A stretch of 64,000 nt of DNA from Bacteriovoracia bacterium (GCA_050251055.1 JBFWNL010000004.1:288001-352000), one strand, 5' to 3'; shown: positions 1 to 11,846, numbered from the stretch's first letter. Notes: generated by a model not told the origin, from the sequence alone. Numbers and translations: made by a program.

Positions 1-519
1 TTCGGACTCTTCGCTGGCGGTGGCCACCAGCGCCAGCCCGGCGGCCAACACGCAGCCCGCGACGCCAATCAAGGTCATCCAAGGAGTAGAGGACTGCCAG
101 GCGATGCCACTGCCGATCGCGCCGCACAGCAAAGCCGTCGCAAGTTTACGGGTCGGCTTGGCGGACTCGCCGGAAATAACGAACGTCAACACCGTGAGCA
201 AAATTCCGAGCAGGATCCAGCTTTGCCCCACGACATCGTAGGCGAACCCGACCTGAATACCGACGGGGGAGGACGTAGGGTCGATCCATCCACGCATCCA
301 ACTTAACGAGCCGCCTTCCCTTAAATTTTCCCAAAGGAGCAAAAAGGCACGGACGTTCAAACCAAAAGTCAACGCCGCGACGATTCCAAAGCCCCATCGG
401 ACAAATGCCAGACGCCCTCCCGGGGTGAGGCGCCCGGCGAAATAAAATGCCCAAGCCACTGCAACCAAGGAGAGGGTGGGCAAAACGGCGGTGACGAGCG
501 AGGTGCTTTCGAATCTCAT
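1..519 (-). CDS. NuoL/antiporter-like membrane subunit, N-terminal part (runs off window edge), highly divergent
   Basis: Not in the ORF track. Manual translation from the ATG at 519 gives MRFESTSLVTAVLPTLSLVAVAWAFYF...WMRGWIDPTSSPVGIQVGFAYDVVGQSWILLGILL..., open to position 1. It is hydrophobic and directly follows nuoK. Confidence 0.6.
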   Translation of the reverse strand, partial: MRFESTSLVTAVLPTLSLVAVAWAFYFAGRLTPGGRLAFVRWGFGIVAALTFGLNVRAFLLLWENLREGGSLSWMRGWIDPTSSPVGIQVGFAYDVVGQSWILLGILLTVLTFVISGESAKPTRKLATALLCGAIGSGIAWQSSTPWMTLIGVAGCVLAAGLALVATASEESE

Positions 520-523
520 GGGT

Positions 524-811
524 TCAGTGCCGCAGCTTTCTGAACGTTTCAATATTCACGTTCTTCTTTAGATAAAAAAGCCGGGTCGCGAGCGAAAACA
601 CCACGAGTAGCTGCCCGCAGCCCGCGACGATCACGAAAAACCCGTACACGTGTCCCTGCGACTGCAGGCCCGCCAACACCCCGCCGACCGAAAAACAAGC
701 CGCCGCCGCGTAAAATAACAAGACGATCCCAATGGCCATCCCAATCAGGTTACGCTTCAAAAGGAGGCAAAAAAATCCAATGGCCGCCAGCGCGACGGGA
801 ATGGCGATCAT
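524..811 (-). CDS. nuoK: NADH-quinone oxidoreductase subunit K-like (divergent)
   Basis: 95 aa with 3 TM segments; LLKRNLI motif; GHVYGFFVI; position after nuoJ with ATGA overlap. Confidence 0.75.
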   Translation of the reverse strand: MIAIPVALAAIGFFCLLLKRNLIGMAIGIVLLFYAAAACFSVGGVLAGLQSQGHVYGFFVIVAGCGQLLVVFSLATRLFYLKKNVNIETFRKLRH

Positions 812-1281
812 TCCGACTTTCCCTCCGATCGCGAAACCACGCCCACCCCCAGCATCACCAGGAACAGCGTGAGCGCGAGTATCTCCAGCGGAAGCAGCTG
901 GGAGCCGAACAACGTCGCGCCGAACTGAACCACCTCATTCGGAGGAAACGCGACTTCGCCGCCCTCAGGCAGGTAACGTACCGCGAGACCCGTCACCGTC
1001 GCCAGGCAGGCGGCGGCCAGGAGGGCCGTCGCGCGATAAAAGAAATTCGCCGGGCGTTCCCGCGACCCGAAAAGCACCACGTAGAACAAGAACACCACGG
1101 CGCAAACCGACGTAATCACCCACTGCGAGACCGCCAGGAATTCCGATCCTGTCGCGAGGAAGCTCGCGCCCAAGGCCATGCCGCAAACCCAAAGGGAAAA
1201 CAGCGCGAGCCGATAGTTCGCCGCCATCGCCGCCACCAGCGCCGCCGCGACCGCCAAAATCCCAAAGCTCCAAAAGACCAT
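808..1281 (-). CDS. nuoJ: NADH-quinone oxidoreductase subunit J-like (divergent)
   Basis: 5 TM segments; SEFLAVSQ and LLPLEILALTL motifs; start at ATG 1281 overlaps the nuoI stop. Confidence 0.75.
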   Translation of the reverse strand: MVFWSFGILAVAAALVAAMAANYRLALFSLWVCGMALGASFLATGSEFLAVSQWVITSVCAVVFLFYVVLFGSRERPANFFYRATALLAAACLATVTGLAVRYLPEGGEVAFPPNEVVQFGATLFGSQLLPLEILALTLFLVMLGVGVVSRSEGKSE

Positions 1282-1817
1282 CAATCCTCCATGTTTTCGC
1301 GTTGGCGCGCCTGGATCCACTTTTCCCTCTGCTCGGGCGAAATTCGCCCCCGGCCGAAGGTGGTCACCAGATTCGATACATCATAGACCGCGCCCTCGAA
1401 TTGCTTGGTGTGCACCAGGGAACCCGGGTGGCAAGCCTCCACGCAAAGGCCGCAAAAAATGCATTGCCCGAAGTCGATGTCGTAGACCGAAACCCACTTT
1501 TTCGACGGATCCGGGCCATGCTCGGTCTCCACGGTAATGCACTTCACCGGGCAGATCCGCTCGCATTCCTGGCAACCCGTGCAGCGGTCGATGTCGTTGA
1601 ACAACAATCCGCGCGTGCGGGGCGGCAGATCGTCCTCGGTGCGCGAAGACACCGGATCGGGGTACTGCTCGGTGATCTCCTTACGAAGCTCGCCCGTGTT
1701 AAAAAGATAGTGAAAACCGCTAACGGCGGAAACGAGCACCGACCGCACGCCGGCGCCCACCTGGACTGCGTAAGACATCAGCGTGGAAATCAATGTGTCT
1801 TTCATAGGTATCGACAT
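1281..1817 (-). CDS. nuoI: NADH-quinone oxidoreductase subunit I-like, 2x[4Fe-4S]
   Basis: TEQYP, RTRG, CTGCQECERICP and CIFCGLCVEAC motifs. Confidence 0.9.
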   Translation of the reverse strand: MSIPMKDTLISTLMSYAVQVGAGVRSVLVSAVSGFHYLFNTGELRKEITEQYPDPVSSRTEDDLPPRTRGLLFNDIDRCTGCQECERICPVKCITVETEHGPDPSKKWVSVYDIDFGQCIFCGLCVEACHPGSLVHTKQFEGAVYDVSNLVTTFGRGRISPEQREKWIQARQRENMED

Positions 1818-1827
1818 CCGCTCGTGC

Positions 1828-2892
1828 TCAAAACAAACTCCGTCCTCCGAGCCAGAGGCACTCGATCAGTAGCGCTCCCAACGCGCAGGGTCCCAGGATC
1901 CGCCAGCAAAACTCCGTCGTTTGGTCCGAGCGCGGCTTCGGCAAGGACCCCACCACCCAATGCGTCGCAAACATCAACAAAAAGACCTTCATCACAAGAT
2001 TCACGAGCTGCACGACCTGCAGAAGCAAACCCTCTCCCGTCAGGCTCACCGCCCAGCCCGGCAGCTTCCAACCCCCAAGAAAGGTGACCGTGGTGGCAAG
2101 CGCCCAAAAAAAACCGCCGTAGAACCGCAGCAAGCGCGTGATGGAAAGACTGGGCCCGGCCACTCCCTGAAAAAAACCGCCTTGGAGATCCGCCCGGGAA
2201 AATCCCGCGTCGAAAGGCGAAACCGAAAACACAACCAGGCCGCCCAGGTAATACGCCAGGAAAACGATGGTAAAGAGAGGCCACGGCTGTTGAAAAACCA
2301 GCCACGAGCCTGGCCAGAAACCCTGATGTTCGAGGATGGCCTGCCACCGGTAACCGCCCACGGCCAGTCCCACACAGAGGATGGAAACCATCACCACGAA
2401 TCCCCCCGATAGGGCCTGGGCGGTGTTGCGGATCATTCCGACCCAGCCTTGGGCGTCGCGCCGGTAAAACCCGTAGAACAAAAAGAAAAAGCTCAAAATA
2501 ATCCCGAAGATCAGCGGCACGAACGCGCTCATATCGGTGTCGAATAGATTAAAGCGTGAGGAGAGCGGGATCGTGAGCACGGACGCGAGCGCCACGCACA
2601 GCAAGGTTCCCAGCCAGAAAAGCTCAGCACGGCGAGGCTTGTGAGCGGGTGACTTCTGGATCAGCTTGAAAAAATCCGCGAGTGGCTGGAAATAGCCGCG
2701 CGGCCCGGCCTCCGCAGGGCCCACGCGAGCTTGCAGGTCCGCGAAGAATTTCCGACGGACGTAAACATCCAAATAAGCCATGGGAACGAGCAGAAGCGCA
2801 ACCACGGCGAGGAAAAAACAAAACAGGAAAAGAATATCCGGCAAGCCGGCGAACATTCCCAAGGTTTGGCGAAGCTCCGGGAGTGCGTTCAT
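1828..2892 (-). CDS. nuoH: NADH-quinone oxidoreductase subunit H-like (divergent)
   Basis: RK..A.LQ.RVGP, QPLADFFKL, PFD, FLGGW and PRSDQ motifs; about 8 TM segments. Confidence 0.85.
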   Translation of the reverse strand: MNALPELRQTLGMFAGLPDILFLFCFFLAVVALLLVPMAYLDVYVRRKFFADLQARVGPAEAGPRGYFQPLADFFKLIQKSPAHKPRRAELFWLGTLLCVALASVLTIPLSSRFNLFDTDMSAFVPLIFGIILSFFFLFYGFYRRDAQGWVGMIRNTAQALSGGFVVMVSILCVGLAVGGYRWQAILEHQGFWPGSWLVFQQPWPLFTIVFLAYYLGGLVVFSVSPFDAGFSRADLQGGFFQGVAGPSLSITRLLRFYGGFFWALATTVTFLGGWKLPGWAVSLTGEGLLLQVVQLVNLVMKVFLLMFATHWVVGSLPKPRSDQTTEFCWRILGPCALGALLIECLWLGGRSLF

Positions 2893-4034
2893 CGATCGGC
2901 TTCTCCCACCGAGATATCCAGACTAGCAAGGATCAAAGGGAAATCGCCCACCCACTGTCCGACCAGGATCTCGGGCACCGCCTGTAAGAGCGCCTTGCTC
3001 CCTCCCCGGACCTGCAAGCGATAAGGGGTATTTCCGCCGTCGGAGACCGCATGGACGGCCAGGACTCCGCGTGCCCCTTCGACGCGCGAATACGCCTCGC
3101 CCTCGGGCACCTTGAAATCGAAAAGCTCCTTCACGGCGCGGTATTCGCCCACCGGAATATTCTCGATCGCCTGGCGGATTATGTCGACGCTCTGGACGAT
3201 CTCACGCAGCCGCACGACCACGCGGTCGTGCACGCCGCCCAGCCGATCGCCCTCTCCTGATCCCACCGGCACCTGAAACTCGAACTCTTCGTATCCACTG
3301 TAGGGCGCGGACTTTCGCATGTCCGACACGACCCCGGACGCACGCGCGTCCGGGCCCGTGATGCCGTACCGGCGCACGACCTCCGGGTGCAGGAGCCCCA
3401 CGCCGGCGGACCGGCGCTGAAAAATATGATTCGACGTGAAAAGGTCCTGATACTCGCGTACCCGCGTGCGAATCAGGTCGCACACTTCCGAGACCCGCTC
3501 GATAAATCCGTCGGTGATATCGGTGGCCACCCCGCCGAAGCGGAAATAATTCAGGTTAAAGCGCGAACCGCTGATCAGCTCGAAAAGATCCAGGATTTTT
3601 TCGCGGTCGCGCAGGACGTAATGCATCACCGTCTCGAGCTCCACGGTCTTCGCGATCCGTAGTAGCGCGCCCAAATGGGCGCTGATTCGGTTCAGCTCGC
3701 AGAGCGTGACGCGGATCCGGTTGGCGCGAGGGGAGACCTGCAGGCCGGCGATTTCCTCCACCGCCAGGCACACCGCCAATTCGGTAAATAGCGCGGTCTC
3801 CGAATCGATCCGGTCGGCGTAGGGCATCACGCTGTACCACTGCTGAAGCTCGATGGCCTTTTCCACGCCCCGATGAAAAAAACCTGATTCGCAGTGCACG
3901 CCGGTGATCATCTCGCCGTCGAGCTGCAGCTTCAGCGCCATTGGCCCCGGCAGTCCCGGATGGAATGGCCCCAGCTCCCACGCCGTCTGCACGGTGCTAA
4001 ACAGGTCGGGGCGGTCGTTCTCCATTTCCACCAT
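2889..4034 (-). CDS. nuoD: NADH-quinone oxidoreductase subunit D-like (divergent)
   Basis: GPFHP, GFFHRGVEK, ELNRISAHL, GP..RASG..D.RK..PY and C-terminal GEADR. Start set at ATG 4034, just after the nuoC stop. No NiFe CxxC motifs. Confidence 0.9.
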   Translation of the reverse strand: MVEMENDRPDLFSTVQTAWELGPFHPGLPGPMALKLQLDGEMITGVHCESGFFHRGVEKAIELQQWYSVMPYADRIDSETALFTELAVCLAVEEIAGLQVSPRANRIRVTLCELNRISAHLGALLRIAKTVELETVMHYVLRDREKILDLFELISGSRFNLNYFRFGGVATDITDGFIERVSEVCDLIRTRVREYQDLFTSNHIFQRRSAGVGLLHPEVVRRYGITGPDARASGVVSDMRKSAPYSGYEEFEFQVPVGSGEGDRLGGVHDRVVVRLREIVQSVDIIRQAIENIPVGEYRAVKELFDFKVPEGEAYSRVEGARGVLAVHAVSDGGNTPYRLQVRGGSKALLQAVPEILVGQWVGDFPLILASLDISVGEADR

Positions 4035-4036
4035 GG

Positions 4037-4534
4037 CTAGATTTCCTCGCTTCGCCGCGGACGCGGAATTTCCGGCAGACGGAACTCGCGCCGGAGGGGG
4101 TAGCCCGTGATCTGCTCCGGCACCGGCCGGAAGGAGACGTTTTTTTCCGTGGGATGCGTGAAATCGATCCCTAGGAGCGCCTGCAGTTCCGACTCGAACT
4201 GCCACGCGGACGGGAAGATCGGCTGAATCGAAGGGATCGCGTAAAGTCCGCCGGAATCGGCTTCCAAGCGCGTCCGGAAGATCACCCGCTGCTGGGTACG
4301 CTGGGACACCAGGAAGTATGTCAGCACCATCTTCGACTTCTCTTCGTAGCCGGAGATGCACTCAAGGAAATCCGCCTCGGTTTCGGCGTCCTCACGGCAA
4401 GCCCGCACCGCGACTTCCACCGCGTCCGGGCGCAAAGTGAAAAACGGCACCTGGGCCGCCCCGAAGGTCCCCACCGAGACCACGCCTCCCGAACGGCGAT
4501 CGTTAATAGACGTCTTTAAATTTTTTAGATCCAA
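4037..4534 (-). CDS. nuoC: NADH-quinone oxidoreductase subunit C-like
   Basis: IPSIQPIFPSA..FESE...LLGIDF and GYPLRREF motifs. Confidence 0.8.
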   Translation of the reverse strand: MDLKNLKTSINDRRSGGVVSVGTFGAAQVPFFTLRPDAVEVAVRACREDAETEADFLECISGYEEKSKMVLTYFLVSQRTQQRVIFRTRLEADSGGLYAIPSIQPIFPSAWQFESELQALLGIDFTHPTEKNVSFRPVPEQITGYPLRREFRLPEIPRPRRSEEI

Positions 4535-4973
4535 TGATCTTCTCCTGGAGGGTCAAAAGCCCGTTCATCACCGCTTCGGGTCGCGGTGGACAGCCGGAAA
4601 CGAAAACATCGACCGGAATCAGTTTCTCCACGCCGGGCACGACGGAATAACTGATGCCCGGGGAAAACGCGCCGCCGGTGCACGCGCATCCACCAACGGC
4701 CAAGACGTACTTGGGCGAAGGCATCCGATCGTAAAGTTCCTTCAAAACCGGCGCCAGTCGGTAAGTGATCGCGCCGCTCACGATCAGGAGGTCCGCCTGC
4801 AGCGGATCGACCTGCGGCAGGCTGCCGAAACGTTCGAGGTCGTAGCGGCAACCGAAGGCGTTCGTCACCTCATCCGAGCAGCAGCCGGTGCCGACGGAAA
4901 AATACCAAAGCGATTTCGCGCGAGACCACTTCAGCAACGAATCCACGGACGTGACCTTGAAGAATGCGCTCAC
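4503..4973 (-). CDS. nuoB: NADH-quinone oxidoreductase subunit B
   Basis: GCC..E, RYDLERFG, QADLLIVSG, PKYV.AVGGCA and VDVFVSGCPPRPE. GTG start overlaps the nuoA stop (GTGA). Confidence 0.92.
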   Translation of the reverse strand: MSAFFKVTSVDSLLKWSRAKSLWYFSVGTGCCSDEVTNAFGCRYDLERFGSLPQVDPLQADLLIVSGAITYRLAPVLKELYDRMPSPKYVLAVGGCACTGGAFSPGISYSVVPGVEKLIPVDVFVSGCPPRPEAVMNGLLTLQEKIIGSKKFKDVY

Positions 4974-5362
4974 GCCTCGTCTTCCTTTCGGAAGGACTTC
5001 AGCCATTCGAGATCGCCCTTGCGGATCGCGTAGAAGAGCCCCAGGCCCAGAAAAGCTCCGATAGAAACGATCGCGGCCAATCCCCGCAATCCGGTTTCGG
5101 CGGAGGAGGAATTCAACGATTCGCGGAACGCCGCCACGCAGGGAGCGAGCACCAATACCAAGAGCACGAGCAATGTCGCGATGTTACCGAATAAAGAGAT
5201 ACGGGGGTTCAGCTTCGCATCCCAAACGATCGGCTTTAGCGGCGTCGCAGTTCCACCGAGCGGCCCGCCATCCCGACGAAAGAATCGCCCCATCAGCAGC
5301 ACGAGGATCGGCACACAGATGCTAAATAGAGCGCATATAATGATAACTACATACGAGCCCAA
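4970..5362 (-). CDS. nuoA: NADH-quinone oxidoreductase subunit A-like (divergent); start uncertain
   Basis: 3 TM segments; C-terminal GLFYAIRKGDLEW; first gene of the operon. TTG at 5362 follows a G-rich RBS-like stretch. Confidence 0.75.
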   Translation of the reverse strand: MGSYVVIIICALFSICVPILVLLMGRFFRRDGGPLGGTATPLKPIVWDAKLNPRISLFGNIATLLVLLVLVLAPCVAAFRESLNSSSAETGLRGLAAIVSIGAFLGLGLFYAIRKGDLEWLKSFRKEDEA

Positions 5363-5460
5363 GCCGTCCCCCGCGAAAGTTACCCCAAAAGTCGAACAAA
5401 ATTCGAACTTTAGGCTACTGAAGTTGAAAACCAGTGTCAAGGTTGGGTAAGGTCGATTGA

Positions 5461-8400
5461 ATGAATTCGGGTGAACTGCCCCTCATCTTGAAACAGATGG
5501 GTACCCTACCGGTTTTCCGGCTGGGCGGCGCATTACCTTCGGCCCAAGCCTACCTTTGCCGCCAACTTCCGCATTCGCTTTCCATCGTCGTCTGCCAGGA
5601 CGAGGACGCCGCGACGGTCTTCGCGCAGAACTTACAAGCCCTGAGTTTGGAAGATTCGGACGCCCCGCTTGTTTTGTCACTACCCAGCTGGGAGCAATCC
5701 CCTTACAGCGCGATCTCGCCGTCAATCCAGGTGCGTCAATCCCGCGCCCGCGCGCTCGCGCACGTCCTCGAAAATCAAGACGGCGGAAGCGGGCGTGGCC
5801 TGCTTGACCCGACATCGCGTGGCCTCATCGTCGTCACGACCCTGGTCGCCCTGAGCCAACGTACCTGTCCGCCTTCGCTCTTTCGGGAAGCTCGCATCGT
5901 TTTGGAAAAAAACGGGGTGGTTGGTCAACGCGAGCAGCTCACCTCCCGGCTGCGAGACGCGGGCTACCTGCAGGTGGATCCGGTGGAAGATCCGGGCACG
6001 TTCGCGGTAAGGGGCGACATCGTCGACGTGTACCCTCCCCAAGCCGAGGCGCCTCTCAGAATTGAGCTCTTCGACGACCAGGTGGAACGCATCCGGGAAT
6101 TCGATCCCGCCACCCAACGCACAAGGACCGGTGTCGAACACGCGCGCTTCGTGATTTATCCCGCCCGCGAAGTCCTGATCCACCCCTCCAACCGCGAGGC
6201 CTTCCGTCAGCGCCTCAAACAGCGCGCCGATGACTTGGGCATCCCTCGCCAAACCCGCGATCCCGTCCTGGAAACCCTCGCTAACGGATTCTATCCCGAG
6301 GGCGCGGACTACTGGTCCGCACTGGCGTATGAAGGAAAACACGTTTTTCGTGATTTCCTCGGGAAAAATGCGACTTTTTTCTTCTCCGACGAGTTAGGCT
6401 GCCGGCAAGCGTTTGAGGCTTTCCAAGTCCGCCAGCGTGAACTGTCCGAGGAGGCAAAGGGCTCCGGTCGGGTGGTTCTGGATTTTCCGGACATATTTTC
6501 GAAGGTCGATGCGGAAGCCGCAGCGTTCGATAGTTACCGGCGGGTTTACTTCGATGCCTTGGAGCTCGCCGACCGCGCGCTCGACGTGCGCGTGGAAACT
6601 TCGCCGATCGTGGCGAACTCCCCCGACACCGCCCGTGGCGCCGAACGAATGGCTCAGTTCGCGGCCCGGATTAAATCCCTGGGCGCATCGCCCACGCTGC
6701 TGGGTTTCGCATCCACCCAAAGCCAGATCGATCGCATGCAGTACCTTTTCCAAGAGAACGGGTTGCCTCCGGCGCGTTGGCGGATCGGAGCGTGGGGCGA
6801 GGGCTTCGCCTGGCCAGCGCAAAACCTCGCGGTATTCTCTCAGGCCGATGTCTTGGGCGAGACCAAGAAACCTTCGACGACTGCACCCAAGCAATGGTCG
6901 GGGCTGCAGAACCTCTCGGACCTGAACGTGGACGACACGATCGTTCACGTCGAACACGGGATTGGCGTTTACCGCGGGATATCGCGGCTCCAGATCATGG
7001 GGGGCGCTTCCGACTTCCTGCTGATCGAATACGACGAACAAGCGAAGCTTTACTTGCCCGTCTATCGCATCAATCTCATCCAGAAGTACGTGGGTGGCCG
7101 CGAGGGAATGAAACTCGCCAAGCTCGGCGCCGGCGCATTCGAAAAGACGAAGGCGAAGGTGCGGGATTCGGTGAAGAAACTCGCCATCAACCTTCTCGAG
7201 GTCTATGCGCAGCGAAAAATCCAAAAAGGCCTGCGTTTCCCGGCCCGGGACGCGATTTTTCAAGAATTCGAGGACCGCTTCCCTTTCCAGGAAACCCCGG
7301 ATCAGACGCAGGCGATCGAGGATTCGTTCCGGGACCTCGAATCGGGACGCATCATGGACCGCTTGATCTGCGGTGACGTAGGGTTCGGCAAGACGGAGGT
7401 CGCGATCCGCGCGGCTTTCCAAGCCGTGATCAGCGGCAAACAGGTGGCCGTGCTCGTGCCGACCACCATCCTCTGCATCCAGCACGAACAGACGTTCAAG
7501 AACCGCATCCAAAAGTTCCCGATTCGCGTGGAGTCTATCTCGCGCTTCAAAACCCGTCCCGAGCAGCAGAAATTACTGCAGGAGCTCGCGGAGGGAAAAA
7601 TCGACGTTCTCATCGGAACGCACCGCCTATTATCAAAGGACGTGAACTTCAAAAAGCTCGGGCTCATCATCGTCGACGAAGAGCACCGCTTTGGTGTCGA
7701 GCACAAAGAGAAGCTGCGCGCCATGAAGGCCAACACCCACGTAATGACGTTGACGGCGACCCCCATCCCGCGAACCTTACATATGGCGCTCGCAGGGATC
7801 CGCGACATCAGCCTCATGACCACGCCGCCCGTGCATCGGTTGCCGATCAAGACTTTCGTCGCGAAGTACGACGAAACCCTCATCAAGCAGGCGATCGAAA
7901 CCGAGCTGGCGCGCGACGGCCAGGTCTTTTTCCTCCATAACCGGGTGCAGACCATCTTCCGCCAGGCCGAAAAGATCCAAGCTTTGGTGCCCGCGGCGAA
8001 GGTGCGGGTCGGCCACGCCCAGATGACGGAAAAAGAACTCGAAGACACAATGCTGGCGTTCTATCGCAAGGAATTCAACGTTTTGGTCTGCACGACCATC
8101 ATCGAATCGGGGTTGGATATCCCGTCCGCGAACACGATCCTCATCAATCACGCCGATCGCTTCGGGCTCGCCCAGCTCTACCAACTGCGCGGGCGCGTCG
8201 GCCGCAGCAACCAACGCGGGTACGCTTACCTACTGCTGTCGAATGACCTCGCCCTTACCGAGGATGCCAAACGAAGGCTGGAGGTCATCCAGCGTTTCGT
8301 GGAACTCGGCAGCGGCTTCCAAATCGCCTCGCATGATCTCGAAATCCGTGGTGGAGGGAACGTGCTAGGCCCCGAGCAGTCGGGCAACATCGCCTCCGTG

Positions 8401-8922
8401 GGCTTCGAGCTCTATACCGAACTTTTGGACGAAGCGATCCGCGAGCTGCAAGGGAAGGGGACTCCGCTCGAGGACCCCGGTAAGGAACCCGAGATCAAAA
8501 CTCCGTTCCCGGCTTTTTTGGATGACCGCTACATTCCGGACGTACACCAACGCTTATCGGTTTACCGCCGACTTGCCGGCGCCGCCGAAGAAGCCGAACT
8601 CGTGGCGATCGAAGAGGAACTCGCGGACCGCTACGGGAAGCTGCCGACCGAGGCCGAAAATCTGCTTTGGGTCATTCGCTTAAAGCAGCTCTTGAAACGC
8701 TCCCAGATCGAATCCATGACCGTCGGCGACCGCAAGTACACGCTTAAACCAGGCGCCGGCCACCGGTTCGACCCCCAGAAAATCCTGCAGGCCGTGCGCG
8801 CGGAAGCGGGTCGCATCCAAGTCATGCCCGACTCCCGCCTCGTGGTGGCTTTGCCCCCCGAACAAAAAAACTCCATCAAAGATTTGGCGTTCCACCTGGA
8901 AAAAACTCTCGCGAATTTCTAA
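5461..8922 (+). CDS. mfd: Transcription-repair coupling factor
   Basis: UvrB-homology module (FAVRGDIVDVYP), VHVEHGIG (RID), CGDVGFGKTEVA, DEEHRFGV, QLRGRVGRS and C-terminal TRCF domain. Confidence 0.98.
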   Translation: MNSGELPLILKQMGTLPVFRLGGALPSAQAYLCRQLPHSLSIVVCQDEDAATVFAQNLQALSLEDSDAPLVLSLPSWEQSPYSAISPSIQVRQSRARALAHVLENQDGGSGRGLLDPTSRGLIVVTTLVALSQRTCPPSLFREARIVLEKNGVVGQREQLTSRLRDAGYLQVDPVEDPGTFAVRGDIVDVYPPQAEAPLRIELFDDQVERIREFDPATQRTRTGVEHARFVIYPAREVLIHPSNREAFRQRLKQRADDLGIPRQTRDPVLETLANGFYPEGADYWSALAYEGKHVFRDFLGKNATFFFSDELGCRQAFEAFQVRQRELSEEAKGSGRVVLDFPDIFSKVDAEAAAFDSYRRVYFDALELADRALDVRVETSPIVANSPDTARGAERMAQFAARIKSLGASPTLLGFASTQSQIDRMQYLFQENGLPPARWRIGAWGEGFAWPAQNLAVFSQADVLGETKKPSTTAPKQWSGLQNLSDLNVDDTIVHVEHGIGVYRGISRLQIMGGASDFLLIEYDEQAKLYLPVYRINLIQKYVGGREGMKLAKLGAGAFEKTKAKVRDSVKKLAINLLEVYAQRKIQKGLRFPARDAIFQEFEDRFPFQETPDQTQAIEDSFRDLESGRIMDRLICGDVGFGKTEVAIRAAFQAVISGKQVAVLVPTTILCIQHEQTFKNRIQKFPIRVESISRFKTRPEQQKLLQELAEGKIDVLIGTHRLLSKDVNFKKLGLIIVDEEHRFGVEHKEKLRAMKANTHVMTLTATPIPRTLHMALAGIRDISLMTTPPVHRLPIKTFVAKYDETLIKQAIETELARDGQVFFLHNRVQTIFRQAEKIQALVPAAKVRVGHAQMTEKELEDTMLAFYRKEFNVLVCTTIIESGLDIPSANTILINHADRFGLAQLYQLRGRVGRSNQRGYAYLLLSNDLALTEDAKRRLEVIQRFVELGSGFQIASHDLEIRGGGNVLGPEQSGNIASVGFELYTELLDEAIRELQGKGTPLEDPGKEPEIKTPFPAFLDDRYIPDVHQRLSVYRRLAGAAEEAELVAIEEELADRYGKLPTEAENLLWVIRLKQLLKRSQIESMTVGDRKYTLKPGAGHRFDPQKILQAVRAEAGRIQVMPDSRLVVALPPEQKNSIKDLAFHLEKTLANF

Positions 8923-8979: not shown

Positions 8980-9801
8980 ATGAAGAATATGAAATACTTG
9001 ATGGCTCTGGGTGTGTGCGTTGCATTCTCGAACGTGGCGACGGCCGCGGTCGTGGCGGAGATCAACAACAAGCAAATCACCCTCGATTACTTCAACGAGA
9101 AGTATCAAGAGAGCGTGAAGTTCTACCAATACAACCCGCCCACGAAGGCGAACGTGCTCGACGAAATCATCAAGCGCGAGCTCGGCATCCAAGAAGCCGT
9201 GAAGATGGGCCTCGATAAGGATCCGGAAGTGATCGACCGGATGCAGACCGTGCTCTACCGCGCCCTGCTGGATCGGCGCCTCGGCAAGGAGATGGAAAAG
9301 ATCGAAGTCACCGATGGGGAAGCCAAGAGCTTCTACGATAAGAATCCGGAAATCCGCACCAGCCATATTTTCATCGCGCTCGCGCCGAACGCGACGCCCG
9401 CGCAGGAAAAAGAAGCCCGCGCGCGCCTGCAGGATATCAAAACTAAGTTCCTGGACCCGGGCAAGATGAGCTTCGCCGAAGTGGCCCAACGTTACTCGCA
9501 AGGCAGCGCGGCCCCGATGGGCGGCGACCTGGATTACCAGACCAAGGACAAGCTCGATCCCAAATACTACGAAACCGCCGTGGCCCTCAGGAATCCGGGC
9601 GCCGTCAGCGGAATCGTACGCACTCGCTTTGGTCTGCACATCATCAAGCTCACCGCCGTCCGCAAGTGGAACGACGCCGACAAGGCGAAATTCAAGCGCC
9701 TGGTATTCGAAGAACAACGCACCGAGATCTTCGAGAAGTTCATGAAGAGCTTGCGCGGCAAGTCCAAGGTCTCGGTTAACGCCGCGTTAATCAAAGAATA
9801 A
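8980..9801 (+). CDS. Periplasmic parvulin/PpiC-type peptidyl-prolyl isomerase
   Basis: Signal peptide; SHIFI, FAEVAQRYS, GGDLDY and TRFGLHIIK motifs. Confidence 0.9.
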   Translation: MKNMKYLMALGVCVAFSNVATAAVVAEINNKQITLDYFNEKYQESVKFYQYNPPTKANVLDEIIKRELGIQEAVKMGLDKDPEVIDRMQTVLYRALLDRRLGKEMEKIEVTDGEAKSFYDKNPEIRTSHIFIALAPNATPAQEKEARARLQDIKTKFLDPGKMSFAEVAQRYSQGSAAPMGGDLDYQTKDKLDPKYYETAVALRNPGAVSGIVRTRFGLHIIKLTAVRKWNDADKAKFKRLVFEEQRTEIFEKFMKSLRGKSKVSVNAALIKE

Positions 9802-9841
9802 GCTCGCAAAAGTGCGGGAAATCACGGTAGATTAGCGGCAA

Positions 9842-10822
9842 ATGCGCCGCTTAATCTCGTTTGCCCCGTTGTCGCTCGCAACCCTAATGATCGCCGGTTT
9901 TCCTTGCTCGGCGGCACATGCCAAGGGCGTCGTGCTGGACCGGCTCGAAGCCTCGGTCAATAACTCCCTCATCTTCCTCTCCGACGTCACCCAGTTCCGA
10001 AAAACGATCGCCTTACGCGGTCAGCTCGATCCCCTGTTCTCCGGATCTTCCTTCGCCAACTCGGCCGCGAGCGCATCCGATCACGACATCGTGCAGTTTC
10101 TCGTAGACGAGAAAGTCATCACCAGCCAATTCCCGGTGAAAGATCCCGAGGTCGAGCAGGAAATCAATTCCATCCAGGCGAACAACCGCATCTCGCGCGA
10201 CAACCTGAAGGCCGCGCTCCGTCAGCAAGGTTTCGCTTTCGAGGATTACTTCGAGCTGATCCGGGCCAGCATCAGCAAACGCGGACTGATCGAACGCGAC
10301 ATCCGCACCAAGGTGTTCATCTCCGACGACGACGTGAAGAATTACTTTTATAACCAGAATCCTTCCACTGGGAAGAACGTGTCGTACCGGATCAAGATCA
10401 TCACCGTGACCCCGGGCAACTATAAGACCCAAGCCGACGCCCGCAAGGCGATCCAAAAGGCACACGCGGCCGTTCAAGCGGGCGAGCCCTTCGAGGAAGT
10501 CGCCAAGCGCATCAGCGACGATCCGTCGTCGGCCACGGGTGGTGAGCTCGGCACGCTTTCCGAGGAAGAGATGTCCGCGCAGATCCGCAAGGAGATCAAG
10601 CCGCTGAAAGTCGGCCAAACCAGCGGAATCTTGGGTTCGGACTCCACGTCTTATTTCATCTTGAAGCTCGTCGATATTAAGTCGAGCCAAGACGACAAGC
10701 TGAACGCCCTGAAGGAGCAGCTCCGCGGGCAACTGGCCGCGAAGGAATACGCGCACCAAATCGAGCTCTGGATCCAGCGCGAGCGGCAAAAGGCCTTCAT
10801 CCACATCGCGCATGCCAAGTAA
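9842..10822 (+). CDS. surA: SurA-like periplasmic chaperone/PPIase
   Basis: LDRLEASVNNSLI (SurA N-terminus); FEEVAKRISDD..SATGGELG; lies upstream of pdxA. Confidence 0.8.
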   Translation: MRRLISFAPLSLATLMIAGFPCSAAHAKGVVLDRLEASVNNSLIFLSDVTQFRKTIALRGQLDPLFSGSSFANSAASASDHDIVQFLVDEKVITSQFPVKDPEVEQEINSIQANNRISRDNLKAALRQQGFAFEDYFELIRASISKRGLIERDIRTKVFISDDDVKNYFYNQNPSTGKNVSYRIKIITVTPGNYKTQADARKAIQKAHAAVQAGEPFEEVAKRISDDPSSATGGELGTLSEEEMSAQIRKEIKPLKVGQTSGILGSDSTSYFILKLVDIKSSQDDKLNALKEQLRGQLAAKEYAHQIELWIQRERQKAFIHIAHAK

Positions 10823-11846
10823 TCCACCCCTCCCTCCGGTGGTGTTGATCACCCCCGGCGATCCCAACGGGATCGGGCCGGAGGTCGTGGCCAAGGTTTT
10901 CCGAAAATCCAAATTCCCAAAGTCTGTCCGCTTCGTCTGCGTGGGGGCGGAGGCGCCGCTGAAAAAACTAAGGGTGAAATACCGTATCCCTGGCTCGCAC
11001 GCCGAACTGGGCGGCATCCGCCGCGCGAAACCCGGAACCCTTTGGCTCTTACCCACGCCCAACCCGCCGGCGGGATTTACACGTACCGCGAAAGCGGGTT
11101 TTCAGTCCGGGTGGTCTATCAGCGCGAGCGTGAAGCTCCTCCAGGCGGGTTCCGCCGATGCGCTCGTCACCGGTCCCATCAGCAAGGAAAACCTGCAGGC
11201 CGGGGGTTTTCCCTATCATGGCCACACCGACTTCTTGGCCGACCTCGCGCGGCCGAGCCCCGAAGCCCACGCGGTCGAGGTCACGATGATGTTGGCCAAT
11301 TCCCAACTTCGCGTCTCGCTCGTAACCGTCCATCAATCCTTGCGGCAGGTGCCCGATTCCCTCACGCGCGAGGGGATCGTACGCGCGGTAATGCAAACCT
11401 GGGAGCACCTCACGGGATTTTGCGGCATCTCGCGGCCCAAGATCGCCGTCACGGCACTCAATCCCCACGCGGGAGAAGCGGGCATCTTAGGTCGGGAAGA
11501 AATCGAGATCATCACTCCCGCGCTAGACGAACTCCGCGCGAAACTGGGAAGAAAATGCGAACTCACGGGCCCGCACCCGGCCGACACGCTGTTTGCGATG
11601 AACCAGCTCGCGAAACCCAAGGAACGGGTCGACGCGGTGGTTTGCATGTACCACGACCAGGGATTGATTCCGGTGAAGCTCTTGGATTTCCCGAATACGG
11701 TAAACCTTACCCTCGGGCTGCCCTTTATTCGCACCTCAGTGGATCACGGGACTGGTTTTGACATCGCCGGACGCGGAATAGCAGACCCTTCCAGTATGGA
11801 AAGCGCGATTTGGCTCGCGCTCGACATGATCCAAAAAAGTCGCTAA
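10812..11846 (+). CDS. pdxA: 4-hydroxythreonine-4-phosphate dehydrogenase
   Basis: GDPNGIGPE, GHTDFL, LNPHAGE, MYHDQGLIP and RTSVDHGTGFDIAG. Confidence 0.96.
   Translation: MPSNPPLPPVVLITPGDPNGIGPEVVAKVFRKSKFPKSVRFVCVGAEAPLKKLRVKYRIPGSHAELGGIRRAKPGTLWLLPTPNPPAGFTRTAKAGFQSGWSISASVKLLQAGSADALVTGPISKENLQAGGFPYHGHTDFLADLARPSPEAHAVEVTMMLANSQLRVSLVTVHQSLRQVPDSLTREGIVRAVMQTWEHLTGFCGISRPKIAVTALNPHAGEAGILGREEIEIITPALDELRAKLGRKCELTGPHPADTLFAMNQLAKPKERVDAVVCMYHDQGLIPVKLLDFPNTVNLTLGLPFIRTSVDHGTGFDIAGRGIADPSSMESAIWLALDMIQKSR

Follow-up and report, generated by a model that had tools for sequence, protein, structure and literature searches.

NUO11-type relatives of complex I include NDH-1 of cyanobacteria and chloroplasts as well as the 11-subunit enzyme found in strict anaerobes, for example Desulfitobacterium (accessible text of PMC3144371 and PMC11238625). 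Their eleven subunits, their gene order and the absence of NuoEFG from the gene set are also characteristic of a group of genes, here called set 1, that begins in a stretch of DNA from a Bacteriovoracia bacterium (GCA_050251055.1 JBFWNL010000004.1:288001-352000). This 64,000-nucleotide stretch is the window of our analysis (G000:C4:288001-352000 in our coordinates), and the DNA beyond its start was also read. Set 1 is an intact, conserved second complex I gene set that probably encodes a repurposed machine rather than a decaying copy, as judged from alignments and from comparisons among relatives. Specifically, its iron-sulfur (Fe-S) cluster ligands are retained, and residues of the quinone site and proton path are replaced in parallel in several subunits. 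The same core inference had been drawn in an earlier, sequence-only reading of the window, and our results support it.

Several described systems resemble set 1 in part. Canonical complex I (Thermus Nqo1-14, E. coli NuoA-N, and set 2, a further gene set of this genome) has the same folds and families for the 11 shared subunits, along with the ligands of clusters N2, N6a and N6b and the lateral helix of NuoL, whereas set 1 lacks NuoE, F and G, the residues His38, Tyr87 and Asp139, the E-channel, and the key residues of the antiporter-like subunits. NDH-1 differs in a similar manner, in that cyanobacterial NdhH has His and Tyr at the quinone-ligand positions where set 1 does not, and NdhB has a Glu in transmembrane helix 5 (TM5) and Lys residues in TM7, TM8 and TM12 that are lost in the antiporter-like subunits of set 1; the E-channel residues are missing from set 1 too. 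The Ehr complexes are group 4 hydrogenase relatives devoid of Ni-Fe ligands and have Mrp-like antiporter subunits presumed to translocate ions (PMC6349859). As in set 1, the Ehr large subunit has neither Ni-Fe cysteines nor an established substrate site, but set 1 differs in having the full series of subunits in nuo order, including A, J and K, and de-charged antiporter-like subunits, a distinction drawn from the published description of Ehr rather than from a named Ehr sequence.

Genomes with more than one nuo set have also been described. Approximately 3% of bacterial genomes carry second complex I isozymes, which are complete enzymes of clades A-E (Spero et al., 2015; accessible text of PMC4453560), and the present genome likewise holds two nuo sets from different clades; that text makes no mention of lost catalytic residues, a fixed tandem, or Bdellovibrio. 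Closer to our organism, a Peredibacter genome paper reports that nuo clusters number more than one in Bdellovibrionota genomes and occupy conserved chromosomal sites; in cultured predators it describes a nuoAHJKLMN cluster plus either a 14-gene or a split one, the clusters being 37.5-41.5% identical to each other (accessible text of PMC13147790). The same text contains no residue analysis, no 11+14 tandem beside mfd, and nothing on lost catalytic residues, and the accessible parts of PMC12361115 and PMC4758237 do not describe the set-1 clade or its residue pattern. More broadly, a full-text literature survey, whose scope stopped short of supplements and most subscription journals, brought up neither an account of this clade nor complex I homologues in which pumping residues are lost wholesale.

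Set 1 comprises nuoA'B'C'D'H'I'J'K'L'M'N' (C4:283547-293362), with all 11 genes in complex I order. The individual genes, with positions counted from the first nucleotide of the window unless given as C4 coordinates, and with lengths in amino acids (aa), are as follows.

nuoA', 4970-5362, minus strand: divergent NuoA/ND3 homologue; start given as 5440 in the list of open reading frames (ORFs), TTG at 5362 likelier
nuoB', 4503-5006, minus strand: subunit of the N2 cluster; PF01058, 2.7e-26
nuoC', 4037-4534, minus strand: 30-kDa subunit homologue, weakly conserved; PF00329, 1.5e-15
nuoD', 2889-4034, minus strand: 381 aa, 49-kDa subunit homologue; PF00346, 3e-75
nuoH', 1828-2892, minus strand: ND1 homologue; PF00146, 2.4e-43
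nuoI', 1281-1817, minus strand: 2x[4Fe-4S] subunit; Fer4 and 4Fe-4S dicluster families in Pfam; TIGR01971, 8.1e-25
nuoJ', 808-1320, minus strand: ND6 homologue; PF00499, 4.6e-9; likely start ATG at 1281
nuoK', 524-811, minus strand: ND4L homologue; PF00420, 2.6e-7
nuoL', 5' part, 1-552, minus strand: 184-aa fragment cut by the window start; the whole protein has 655 aa and extends to G000:C4:286585
nuoM', C4:286581-285058, outside the window, after nuoL': 507 aa, Proton_antipo_M, PF00361
nuoN', C4:285028-283547, outside the window, after nuoM': 493 aa, Proton_antipo_M, PF00361

All 11 subunits are homologous to their canonical counterparts according to Pfam, NCBIfam and hhalign. Pfam yields the expected complex I family for eight of the nine window ORFs, with NuoA' matching PF00507 (E 0.005, 17.5 bits) beneath the curated cut-off of 23.3 bits, and the 184-aa nuoL' fragment gives no meaningful Pfam match. 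Only NuoB' (NF005012, 188.8 bits versus 116) and NuoD' (361 versus 360) reach the curated NCBIfam cut-offs, indicating that set 1 is strongly diverged. When profiles built from orthologues are compared with canonical profiles by hhalign, the probabilities are 97.8% for A', 99.8% for C', 98.6% for J', 97.7% for K' and 99.1% for L'. Among solved structures, NuoH' scores best with the chloroplast or cyanobacterial chain NdhA (4.9e-21) and NuoN' with NdhB (2.7e-46), and NuoD' aligns in one stretch to a run of short NuoD-like library proteins of approximately 365-385 aa. Set 1 encodes the eleven core subunits A, B, C, D, H, I, J, K, L, M and N in order; it descends from NUO11-type complexes and would work like them.

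The sequence-only reading had described nine ORFs in complex I order, some of them joined by overlaps, with nuoD running directly into nuoH, and the minus-strand ORF list and the Pfam matches bear this out: ATGA overlaps join D'/H' (2892-2889) and J'/K' (811-808), and H' lies directly 3' of D' with no nuoE, F or G between them. Its proposal of an intact nuoABCDHIJK(L) operon without nuoEFG needs amendment. The genes are indeed intact, but the operon does not end in the window, as L', M' and N' continue beyond position 1. Similarly, the absence of nuoEFG holds for the 11-gene set but not for its neighborhood. A search for a second, canonical nuo set located one adjoining set 1, namely a 14-gene nuoABCDEFGHIJKLMN operon (set 2, C4:270079-283517) that starts 29 base pairs (bp) after nuoN' on the same strand. 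The genome, which is 93.5% complete, has two NuoD loci, five recognizable antiporter-like genes and one NuoF, and this sole nuoF sits in the canonical operon. Sets 1 and 2 share 21-45% identity over local alignments.

Fe-S ligands retained and catalytic residues replaced

All 12 cysteines that serve as ligands of N2, N6a and N6b are present in the window. In NuoB', the four N2 ligands (C42, C43, C107 and C139) are conserved in 98-100% of 54 set-1 sequences, and in NuoI' all eight cysteines of the two CxxCxxCxxxCP motifs are conserved in 100% of 49 sequences, in agreement with the earlier suggestion that Fe-S ligands were kept. Outside these ligands the two proteins have changed. Arg59 and Arg63 of canonical NuoB are Gln and Leu in the NuoB' of the window, and NuoI' bears terminal extensions and 18 set-1-specific conserved columns of polar residues or Pro, features that are compatible with a docking partner of its own.

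The quinone ligands, in contrast to the Fe-S ligands, have been lost from the large subunit. The canonical proton-donating quinone ligands are His38 and Tyr87 of Nqo4, and the loops that flank the site are Nqo4 32-39, Nqo8 223-229 and Nqo6 66-75 (accessible text of PMC7434922). Direct phmmer alignment of NuoD' with Thermus Nqo4, which is ungapped in this region, places Pro30 opposite His38, Ser79 opposite Tyr87, and Thr131 opposite Asp139. In the orthologue alignment the His38 position is Pro in 88% of sequences and the Tyr87 position is Pro in 86%. Among 119 NuoD' homologues, Pro occupies these positions in 113 and 114 sequences, respectively, and none has His at the former or Tyr at the latter. 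The Asp139 position is Ala or Thr in set 1. Both the Nqo4 32-39 and the Nqo8 223-229 loops are changed in set 1, and probably the Nqo6 66-75 loop too.

More than 100 NuoD' homologues fall at 50-57% identity. The named ones are labeled in their sources as Bdellovibrionota, Oligoflexia or Bdellovibrio, apart from one (P0013, 55% identity) labeled Methylotenera sp., whose contig is probably mis-binned. A different state is seen in three loci of the window's order (L087, L088 and L104, from families f7 and f8), where NuoD' retains Tyr87 and has Ile at the His38 position (AIGP ... DY). These sequences form their own starred clade beside the Pro/Pro clade, and may represent an intermediate stage of ligand loss.

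We also considered whether NuoD' belongs to a group 4 [NiFe] hydrogenase, and rejected this identity. As the sequence-only reading had noted, NuoD' has no CxxC motif, and there is no Cys at either Ni-Fe site; its N-terminal loop reads GPFHPGLPGP and its C-terminus SLDISVGEADR. Representative hydrogenases (P0228, P0250, P0258 and P0266) carry CGIC and DPCFxC, for example DPCFSC. NuoD' scores 1e-74 against NuoD/Nqo4 versus 1.9e-40 against MbhL and 2e-33 against HycE, and it lies nearer to NuoD than to the hydrogenase-like rows, a further difference from Ehr.

The E-channel residues are all replaced, both in the window and in the majority of the clade. These comprise Glu163, Glu213 and Glu248 of Nqo8, Asp72 and Glu74 of Nqo7, Tyr59 of Nqo10, and Glu32 and Glu67 of Nqo11. 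The residue numbers for Nqo7 and Nqo8 are in part those we take to be standard, and the positions themselves come from alignments. The names of the Nqo10 and Nqo11 residues agree with the accessible text of PMC7434922. For NuoH', Thermus Nqo8 numbering was anchored on the canonical NuoH of the genome in an alignment of 55 set-1 and 23 canonical sequences, which reveals R in place of E35, G/G in place of Y162/E163, V at both E213 and R216, F at E223, G at E235, and R at E248. Direct alignment to chloroplast NdhA confirms these losses. NuoH' keeps Arg36, Asp62, Lys65 and a C-terminal Arg/Asp motif, and in total 12 of 28 canonical conserved D/E/K/R/H/Y/C columns. In NuoA', Val92 and Leu94 replace the Asp and Glu of the canonical FDxE motif. 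In the window Thr70 takes the place of the canonical Y62 of NuoJ (Tyr59, in TM3), a position at which 73% of the clade has Ser, and in NuoK' E48 has become V30 (Gln in 86% of the clade) and E84 has become Q67 (Gln in 81%).

Equally extensive changes are found in the antiporter-like subunits, for which we used the framework of key residues in the accessible text of PMC7434922, consisting of a TM5 Glu, a TM7 Lys, a TM8 Lys or His, and a TM12 Lys or Glu in L, M and N. At these four sites the residues of the set-1 proteins are L, R, P and Q in M', Q, F, P and R in N', and A, L, C and A in L', such that the canonical pattern is absent from all three and only conservative Lys-to-Arg changes remain. 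The E. coli numbers quoted for NuoL, M and N are presumably the conventional ones, and the positions were again taken from alignments. Direct alignment of NuoM' with E. coli NuoM, in which the E. coli numbers match the chain positions, gives Leu for E144, Arg for K234, Pro for K265, and Gln for E407. Among 43 NuoM' orthologues the TM7 Lys is Arg in 42, the TM8 Lys is Pro in 39, and the TM7 His is kept in 36. NuoN', aligned directly with cyanobacterial NdhB, has Gln for the TM5 Glu, Phe for the TM7 Lys, Pro for the TM8 Lys, and Arg for the TM12 Lys. In its orthologues the TM5 Glu is Gln in 26/43 and Leu in 13/43 and is kept in only 2/43, the TM8 Lys is Arg in 32/43, and the TM12 Lys is kept in 35/43. 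The canonical reference rows for these alignments numbered five for NuoM, three of which have no Lys at TM7, and one for NuoN, and alignments to solved chains were preferred.

NuoL' alone has no Pfam match and no sequence match in the PDB (the best hit, at E 0.14, is an antibody chain), and it is recognized as NuoL only by the profile-profile comparison, in which the orthologue profile and the canonical NuoL profile align over 527 columns with an E of 1.6e-18. All nine residues checked have become uncharged: the TM5 Glu, TM6 Asp, TM7 Lys, TM8 His, two TM11 His, the TM11 Lys, and the TM12 Lys-Asp. The TM7 Lys is Gln in 34 of 45 orthologues, and the profile-profile alignment shows the same Lys-to-Gln change. 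The lateral helix and terminal TM anchor are nevertheless present, since the hhalign alignment extends to L' residue 652, and the C-terminal motif VVQNGDLQWY corresponds to VVQTGSLQVY in the NuoL of set 2. Among set-1-specific conserved columns we found no relocated conserved intramembrane carboxylates.

These losses are real and do not stem from shifts in alignment. They are concordant between phmmer comparisons with solved chains and MAFFT alignments with 41-57 orthologues, and the profile-profile comparison agrees. In addition, set 2 of the same genome, which serves as a positive control, possesses every checked residue that set 1 has lost. The earlier claim of parallel replacement across several subunits is therefore upheld by direct and multiple alignments, and the replacements are themselves conserved.

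Conservation, selection and distribution

If set 1 were a decaying copy, its genes would be expected to show lesions and relaxed selection. A genome scan with one genome per species gave 80 loci, 50 of them with set-1-type genes, and with regions fetched from relatives there are 56 loci with both B' and D'. Relatives are not independent samples, and L052 and L098 derive from the same genome. Set-1 ORFs recovered from the 56 loci are open and of normal length; orthologue ORFs outside 0.75-1.4x of the median length were excluded before alignment. The ratio of nonsynonymous to synonymous substitution rates (dN/dS) is 0.014-0.17 for all 11 set-1 genes in the pair L014-L020, the sole unsaturated long pair (dS 0.34-0.52), versus 0.046-0.099 for canonical A-D in the same pair. 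For the short pair L042-L053 the ratio is 0.08-0.17 in A', B' and D', and more distant pairs, which are saturated (dS >1 or not computable), were not relied on. From these values, set 1 is under purifying selection, and with open ORFs and replacement residues that are themselves conserved across the clade, we rejected the decaying-copy reading. The preference for repurposing over random decay voiced in the sequence-only reading withstands this check, as dN/dS in the unsaturated pairs is well below 1 and the sole lesion is a TAG codon in one relative, discussed below.

Conservation is distributed unevenly among the subunits. When canonical columns conserved at 90% or more are considered, the numbers kept in set 1 are 48 of 59 for B', 18/22 for I', 64/83 for D', 44/88 for H', 12/23 for C', 11/27 for A', 8/25 for J', 4/27 for K', and 18/131 for L'. 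The most constrained set-1 subunits are the Fe-S subunits B' and I', followed by D', M', N' and H', a ranking from which it can be argued that electrons do pass through N6a, N6b and N2. The lineage of the window is a divergent member of the clade, with Ser, Val, Pro and Arg where the majority has Pro, Gln, Arg and Lys.

The arrangement of genes is conserved as well. A homologue of the ORF labeled mfd lies divergently upstream of set 1 in 51 of the 56 loci, matching the expectation that orthologous operons would be found beside this ORF in relatives, and the other five end less than 1.4 kb upstream of D'. The canonical nuoA comes right after nuoN' in 41 loci, and the other 15 end before that point. 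Thus no counter-example to the mfd / set 1 / set 2 layout exists among those of the 56 Bdellovibrionota loci that are long enough.

A NuoD' search covering 301 genomes of the phylum gave matches with E <=1e-99 in 31 of the 60 further genomes belonging to the window's order, and no such match among the 240 genomes outside that order. Less strong matches, from families f2, f7 and f8 and from one f3 genus, also occur in the mfd / set 1 / set 2 layout; family f4 has one NuoD only, with a canonical score. None of the 60 same-order genomes has a set-1 NuoD' as its sole NuoD match, and where a genome has a single match, its score is a canonical one (E 1e-40 to 1e-48). Relatives of a basal NuoD'-like representative occur in f13, a family in another order of the same class, and the layout recurs there. 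In two f13 loci (L107 6566-13553 and L108 9447-13497), approximately 7 kb and 4 kb separate NuoI' from the antiporter-like genes, and these gaps contain no NuoJ', K' or L' recognizable by BLAST. L107 also has no recognized NuoN' and one M'-like ORF only. The missing genes have presumably diverged beyond recognition or been replaced.

Ten regions from other families of the phylum (L090-L096 and L101-L103) lack the 11+14 tandem. Six have a nuoB-C-D-I cluster, two have C-D-I or C-D only, nuoD stands alone in one, and in one nuoB comes after C-D-I; their NuoD proteins are 35-40% identical to both D' and the NuoD of set 2 (D2). These clusters are probably the 'split' nuo of Bdellovibrio that appears in the accessible text of PMC4758237 and PMC13147790.

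To place NuoD', a FastTree phylogeny was built from 165 NuoD-like sequences, consisting of the best 150 50%-cluster representatives from a library of 1.8 billion proteins plus references; the tree is unrooted, made by a fast method, and composed mostly of unnamed rows. The NuoD' of the window falls in a starred clade of 41 rows within a group of 53-55 rows, in which no row has His38 and only seven have Tyr87. D2 lies deep in the His/Tyr clade, and Cys-bearing hydrogenase-like rows are elsewhere. Because D' and D2 occupy separate clades, we rejected a recent duplication of set 2 as the origin of set 1.

Possible roles of set 1

We tentatively favor the interpretation that the window carries the first nine genes of a NUO11-type complex I paralogue that has been repurposed into a non-pumping electron-transfer module. 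According to this model, the set-1 proteins would assemble as an L-shaped, complex-I-like membrane complex with the [4Fe-4S] clusters N6a, N6b and N2. Electrons would be fed in at NuoI', supplied by a dedicated partner or by NuoEFG of the adjacent operon, and would leave N2 for an acceptor in the remodeled pocket. The clade-specific columns and extensions of NuoI' would fit a dedicated donor, with the adjacent NuoEFG still a candidate. The complex would be unable to protonate quinone at the canonical Tyr87/His38 site, and no protons should move along its canonical hydrophilic axis, because nearly every key carboxylate and lysine of that axis has been exchanged for a neutral residue, Pro or Arg. 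Loss of the Tyr/His/Asp triad and neutralization of the axis make canonical quinone reduction and redox-driven pumping implausible. Finally, the invariable tandem with a canonical nuo operon suggests co-expression, and perhaps physical or regulatory coupling.

Several observations weigh against this interpretation. The axis is not wholly uncharged, given that the M' TM7 Arg, the N' TM8 Arg and the N' TM12 Lys are common. Without Tyr87 and His38 a quinone acceptor for set 1 is doubtful. Set 1 is also the faster-evolving of the two sets, with identity of relatives to the window's proteins of approximately 26% for L' and 27% for C' versus 60-80% for canonical A-D, and in K', A', J', C' and L' just 5-19 columns reach 90% conservation, which could reflect relaxed constraint on parts of the membrane arm. 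Perhaps set 1 is expressed more weakly than set 2, as hinted by GC content at third codon positions (GC3) of 0.70-0.78 for set-1 genes versus 0.78-0.85 for set-2 genes; overall GC is alike at 0.590 for set 1, 0.583 for set 2 and 0.578 for the genome. Two further items concern individual relatives. The NuoD' match of one genome that is not among the 56 loci (G185, C22:45709-46830) has one in-frame TAG, which may reflect a sequencing error, a pseudogene or recoding. In the pair L011-L023, dN/dS for I' is 0.656, a value obtained on a 446-codon ORF that is far longer than NuoI' and probably due to an over-extended ORF call.

The most serious rival, though we judge it unlikely, is that set 1 encodes a structural or regulatory pseudo-complex that assembles without turnover, acting as a partner of canonical complex I (in a supercomplex, as an assembly platform or as a membrane organizer) or as an N2-based redox sensor. 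Many changes are near-isosteric, with Gln for Glu in NuoK' and Gln or Arg for Lys in L', M' and N', as would be expected of a pseudoenzyme whose shape is preserved without chemistry, and the unbroken linkage to a canonical operon in 56 loci, together with the lack of any same-order genome whose only NuoD match is NuoD', is what a dependent partner would show. The strict conservation of all 12 Fe-S cysteines, with B', D' and I' the most constrained, is nonetheless hard to understand without electron flow, and 11 genes (approximately 10 kb) would be a costly scaffold. A second rival is a hybrid isoenzyme, wherein set-1 subunits would combine with NuoEFG, and perhaps further subunits, of the adjacent operon into an uncoupled NADH dehydrogenase for occasions on which pumping would not be wanted, such as a high proton-motive force or a need for redox balancing. 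This proposal, which overlaps with one of the donor options of the electron-transfer model, accords with the single nuoF of the genome located 29 bp downstream in a conserved tandem, and a genome that holds a single nuoEFG alongside duplicate copies of the remaining genes 'could potentially' yield two isozymes (Spero et al., 2015; accessible text of PMC4453560). We regard it as improbable, since NuoD' belongs to a deep clade apart from canonical NuoD and the clade-specific residues and extensions of NuoI' suggest another docking partner.

Still less probable is that the set-1 complex remains an ion pump that employs unconventional residues, water wires or another ion. The charged residues that persist in M' and N', the TM7 His of M', and the preserved lateral helix of NuoL' speak for such a pump, but the TM5 Glu is absent from L' and M' and rare in N', both Glu of NuoK, the Asp and Glu of NuoA and the Glu of NuoH are gone, all nine checked residues of L' are lost, and the set-1-specific conserved columns include no intramembrane carboxylates relocated to take their place. 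Very improbable indeed is that set 1 encodes a normally active ferredoxin:quinone oxidoreductase of the usual NUO11 type, or is a duplicate in decay. Its 11-gene layout matches known NUO11 enzymes (accessible text of PMC3144371 and PMC4758237) and set 1 evolves fast, yet the defining catalytic residues are absent by direct and multiple alignments and, for L', by profile alignment, and open, normal-length ORFs under purifying selection with conserved replacements are not those of a decaying duplicate.

Neutralizing single key residues by site-directed mutation is the main experimental tool in this field. In set 1, evolution has simultaneously neutralized the quinone ligands and nearly all of the hydrophilic axis, with the Fe-S ligands retained under selection. 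If set 1 assembles, it would provide a natural control for a complex I scaffold without pumping, and probably a new activity or regulatory role of a complex I homologue. Possibly, a whole class of Bdellovibrionota keeps, under strong purifying selection, a complex-I-derived machine without canonical quinone chemistry or redox-driven proton pumping, its Fe-S wire retained for a new, non-electrogenic redox reaction or for coupling redox changes to an output other than ion movement, for instance the regulation or organization of canonical complex I. There is also a caution for annotation, in that sources label such genes 'NADH-quinone oxidoreductase subunit D' and the like, which inflates the apparent respiratory capacity of Bdellovibrionota metagenome-assembled genomes. 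Two carrier records (loci L025 and L010) are labeled as strains (FG-1 and FG-2, respectively) rather than metagenome-assembled genomes, and direct testing may be feasible.

Transcription signals and neighboring features

The flank of set 1 includes the following features.

Divergent intergenic region nuoA'/mfd, 5363-5460, 98 bp: contains TTGACA at 5440-5435, minus strand
mfd-labeled ORF, 5461-8922, plus strand: 1153 aa; putative mfd, the name being the label given in the sequence-only reading

The listed TTG start of nuoA' at 5440 falls within this TTGACA, which resembles a -35 box. The TTG at 5362 is preceded by GGGGGA, agrees with the end coordinate of the sequence-only reading, and is the likelier start; the perfect TTGACA then lies 73 nucleotides upstream of it, inside the divergent region, and may be part of a promoter. 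A consensus promoter scan reported no full promoter in this 98-bp region, and its predicted sites were no more numerous than in shuffled sequences. Only weak terminator-like matches were found by the terminator scan, all of them intragenic. At the other end of set 1, the 29-bp nuoN'-nuoA junction contains no terminator-like site, and set 1 is probably co-transcribed with set 2.

Thermus and E. coli NuoG proteins are roughly 780-910 aa long. The NuoG of set 2 has only 466 aa (C4:277564-278964; 9564-10964, minus strand, in locus L005), and NuoG ORFs of relatives are similarly short, with 471 aa in L107 and 484 aa in L108. Lastly, just after the mfd-labeled ORF, a 273-aa ORF with an apparent signal peptide occupies positions 8980-9801 of the plus strand.

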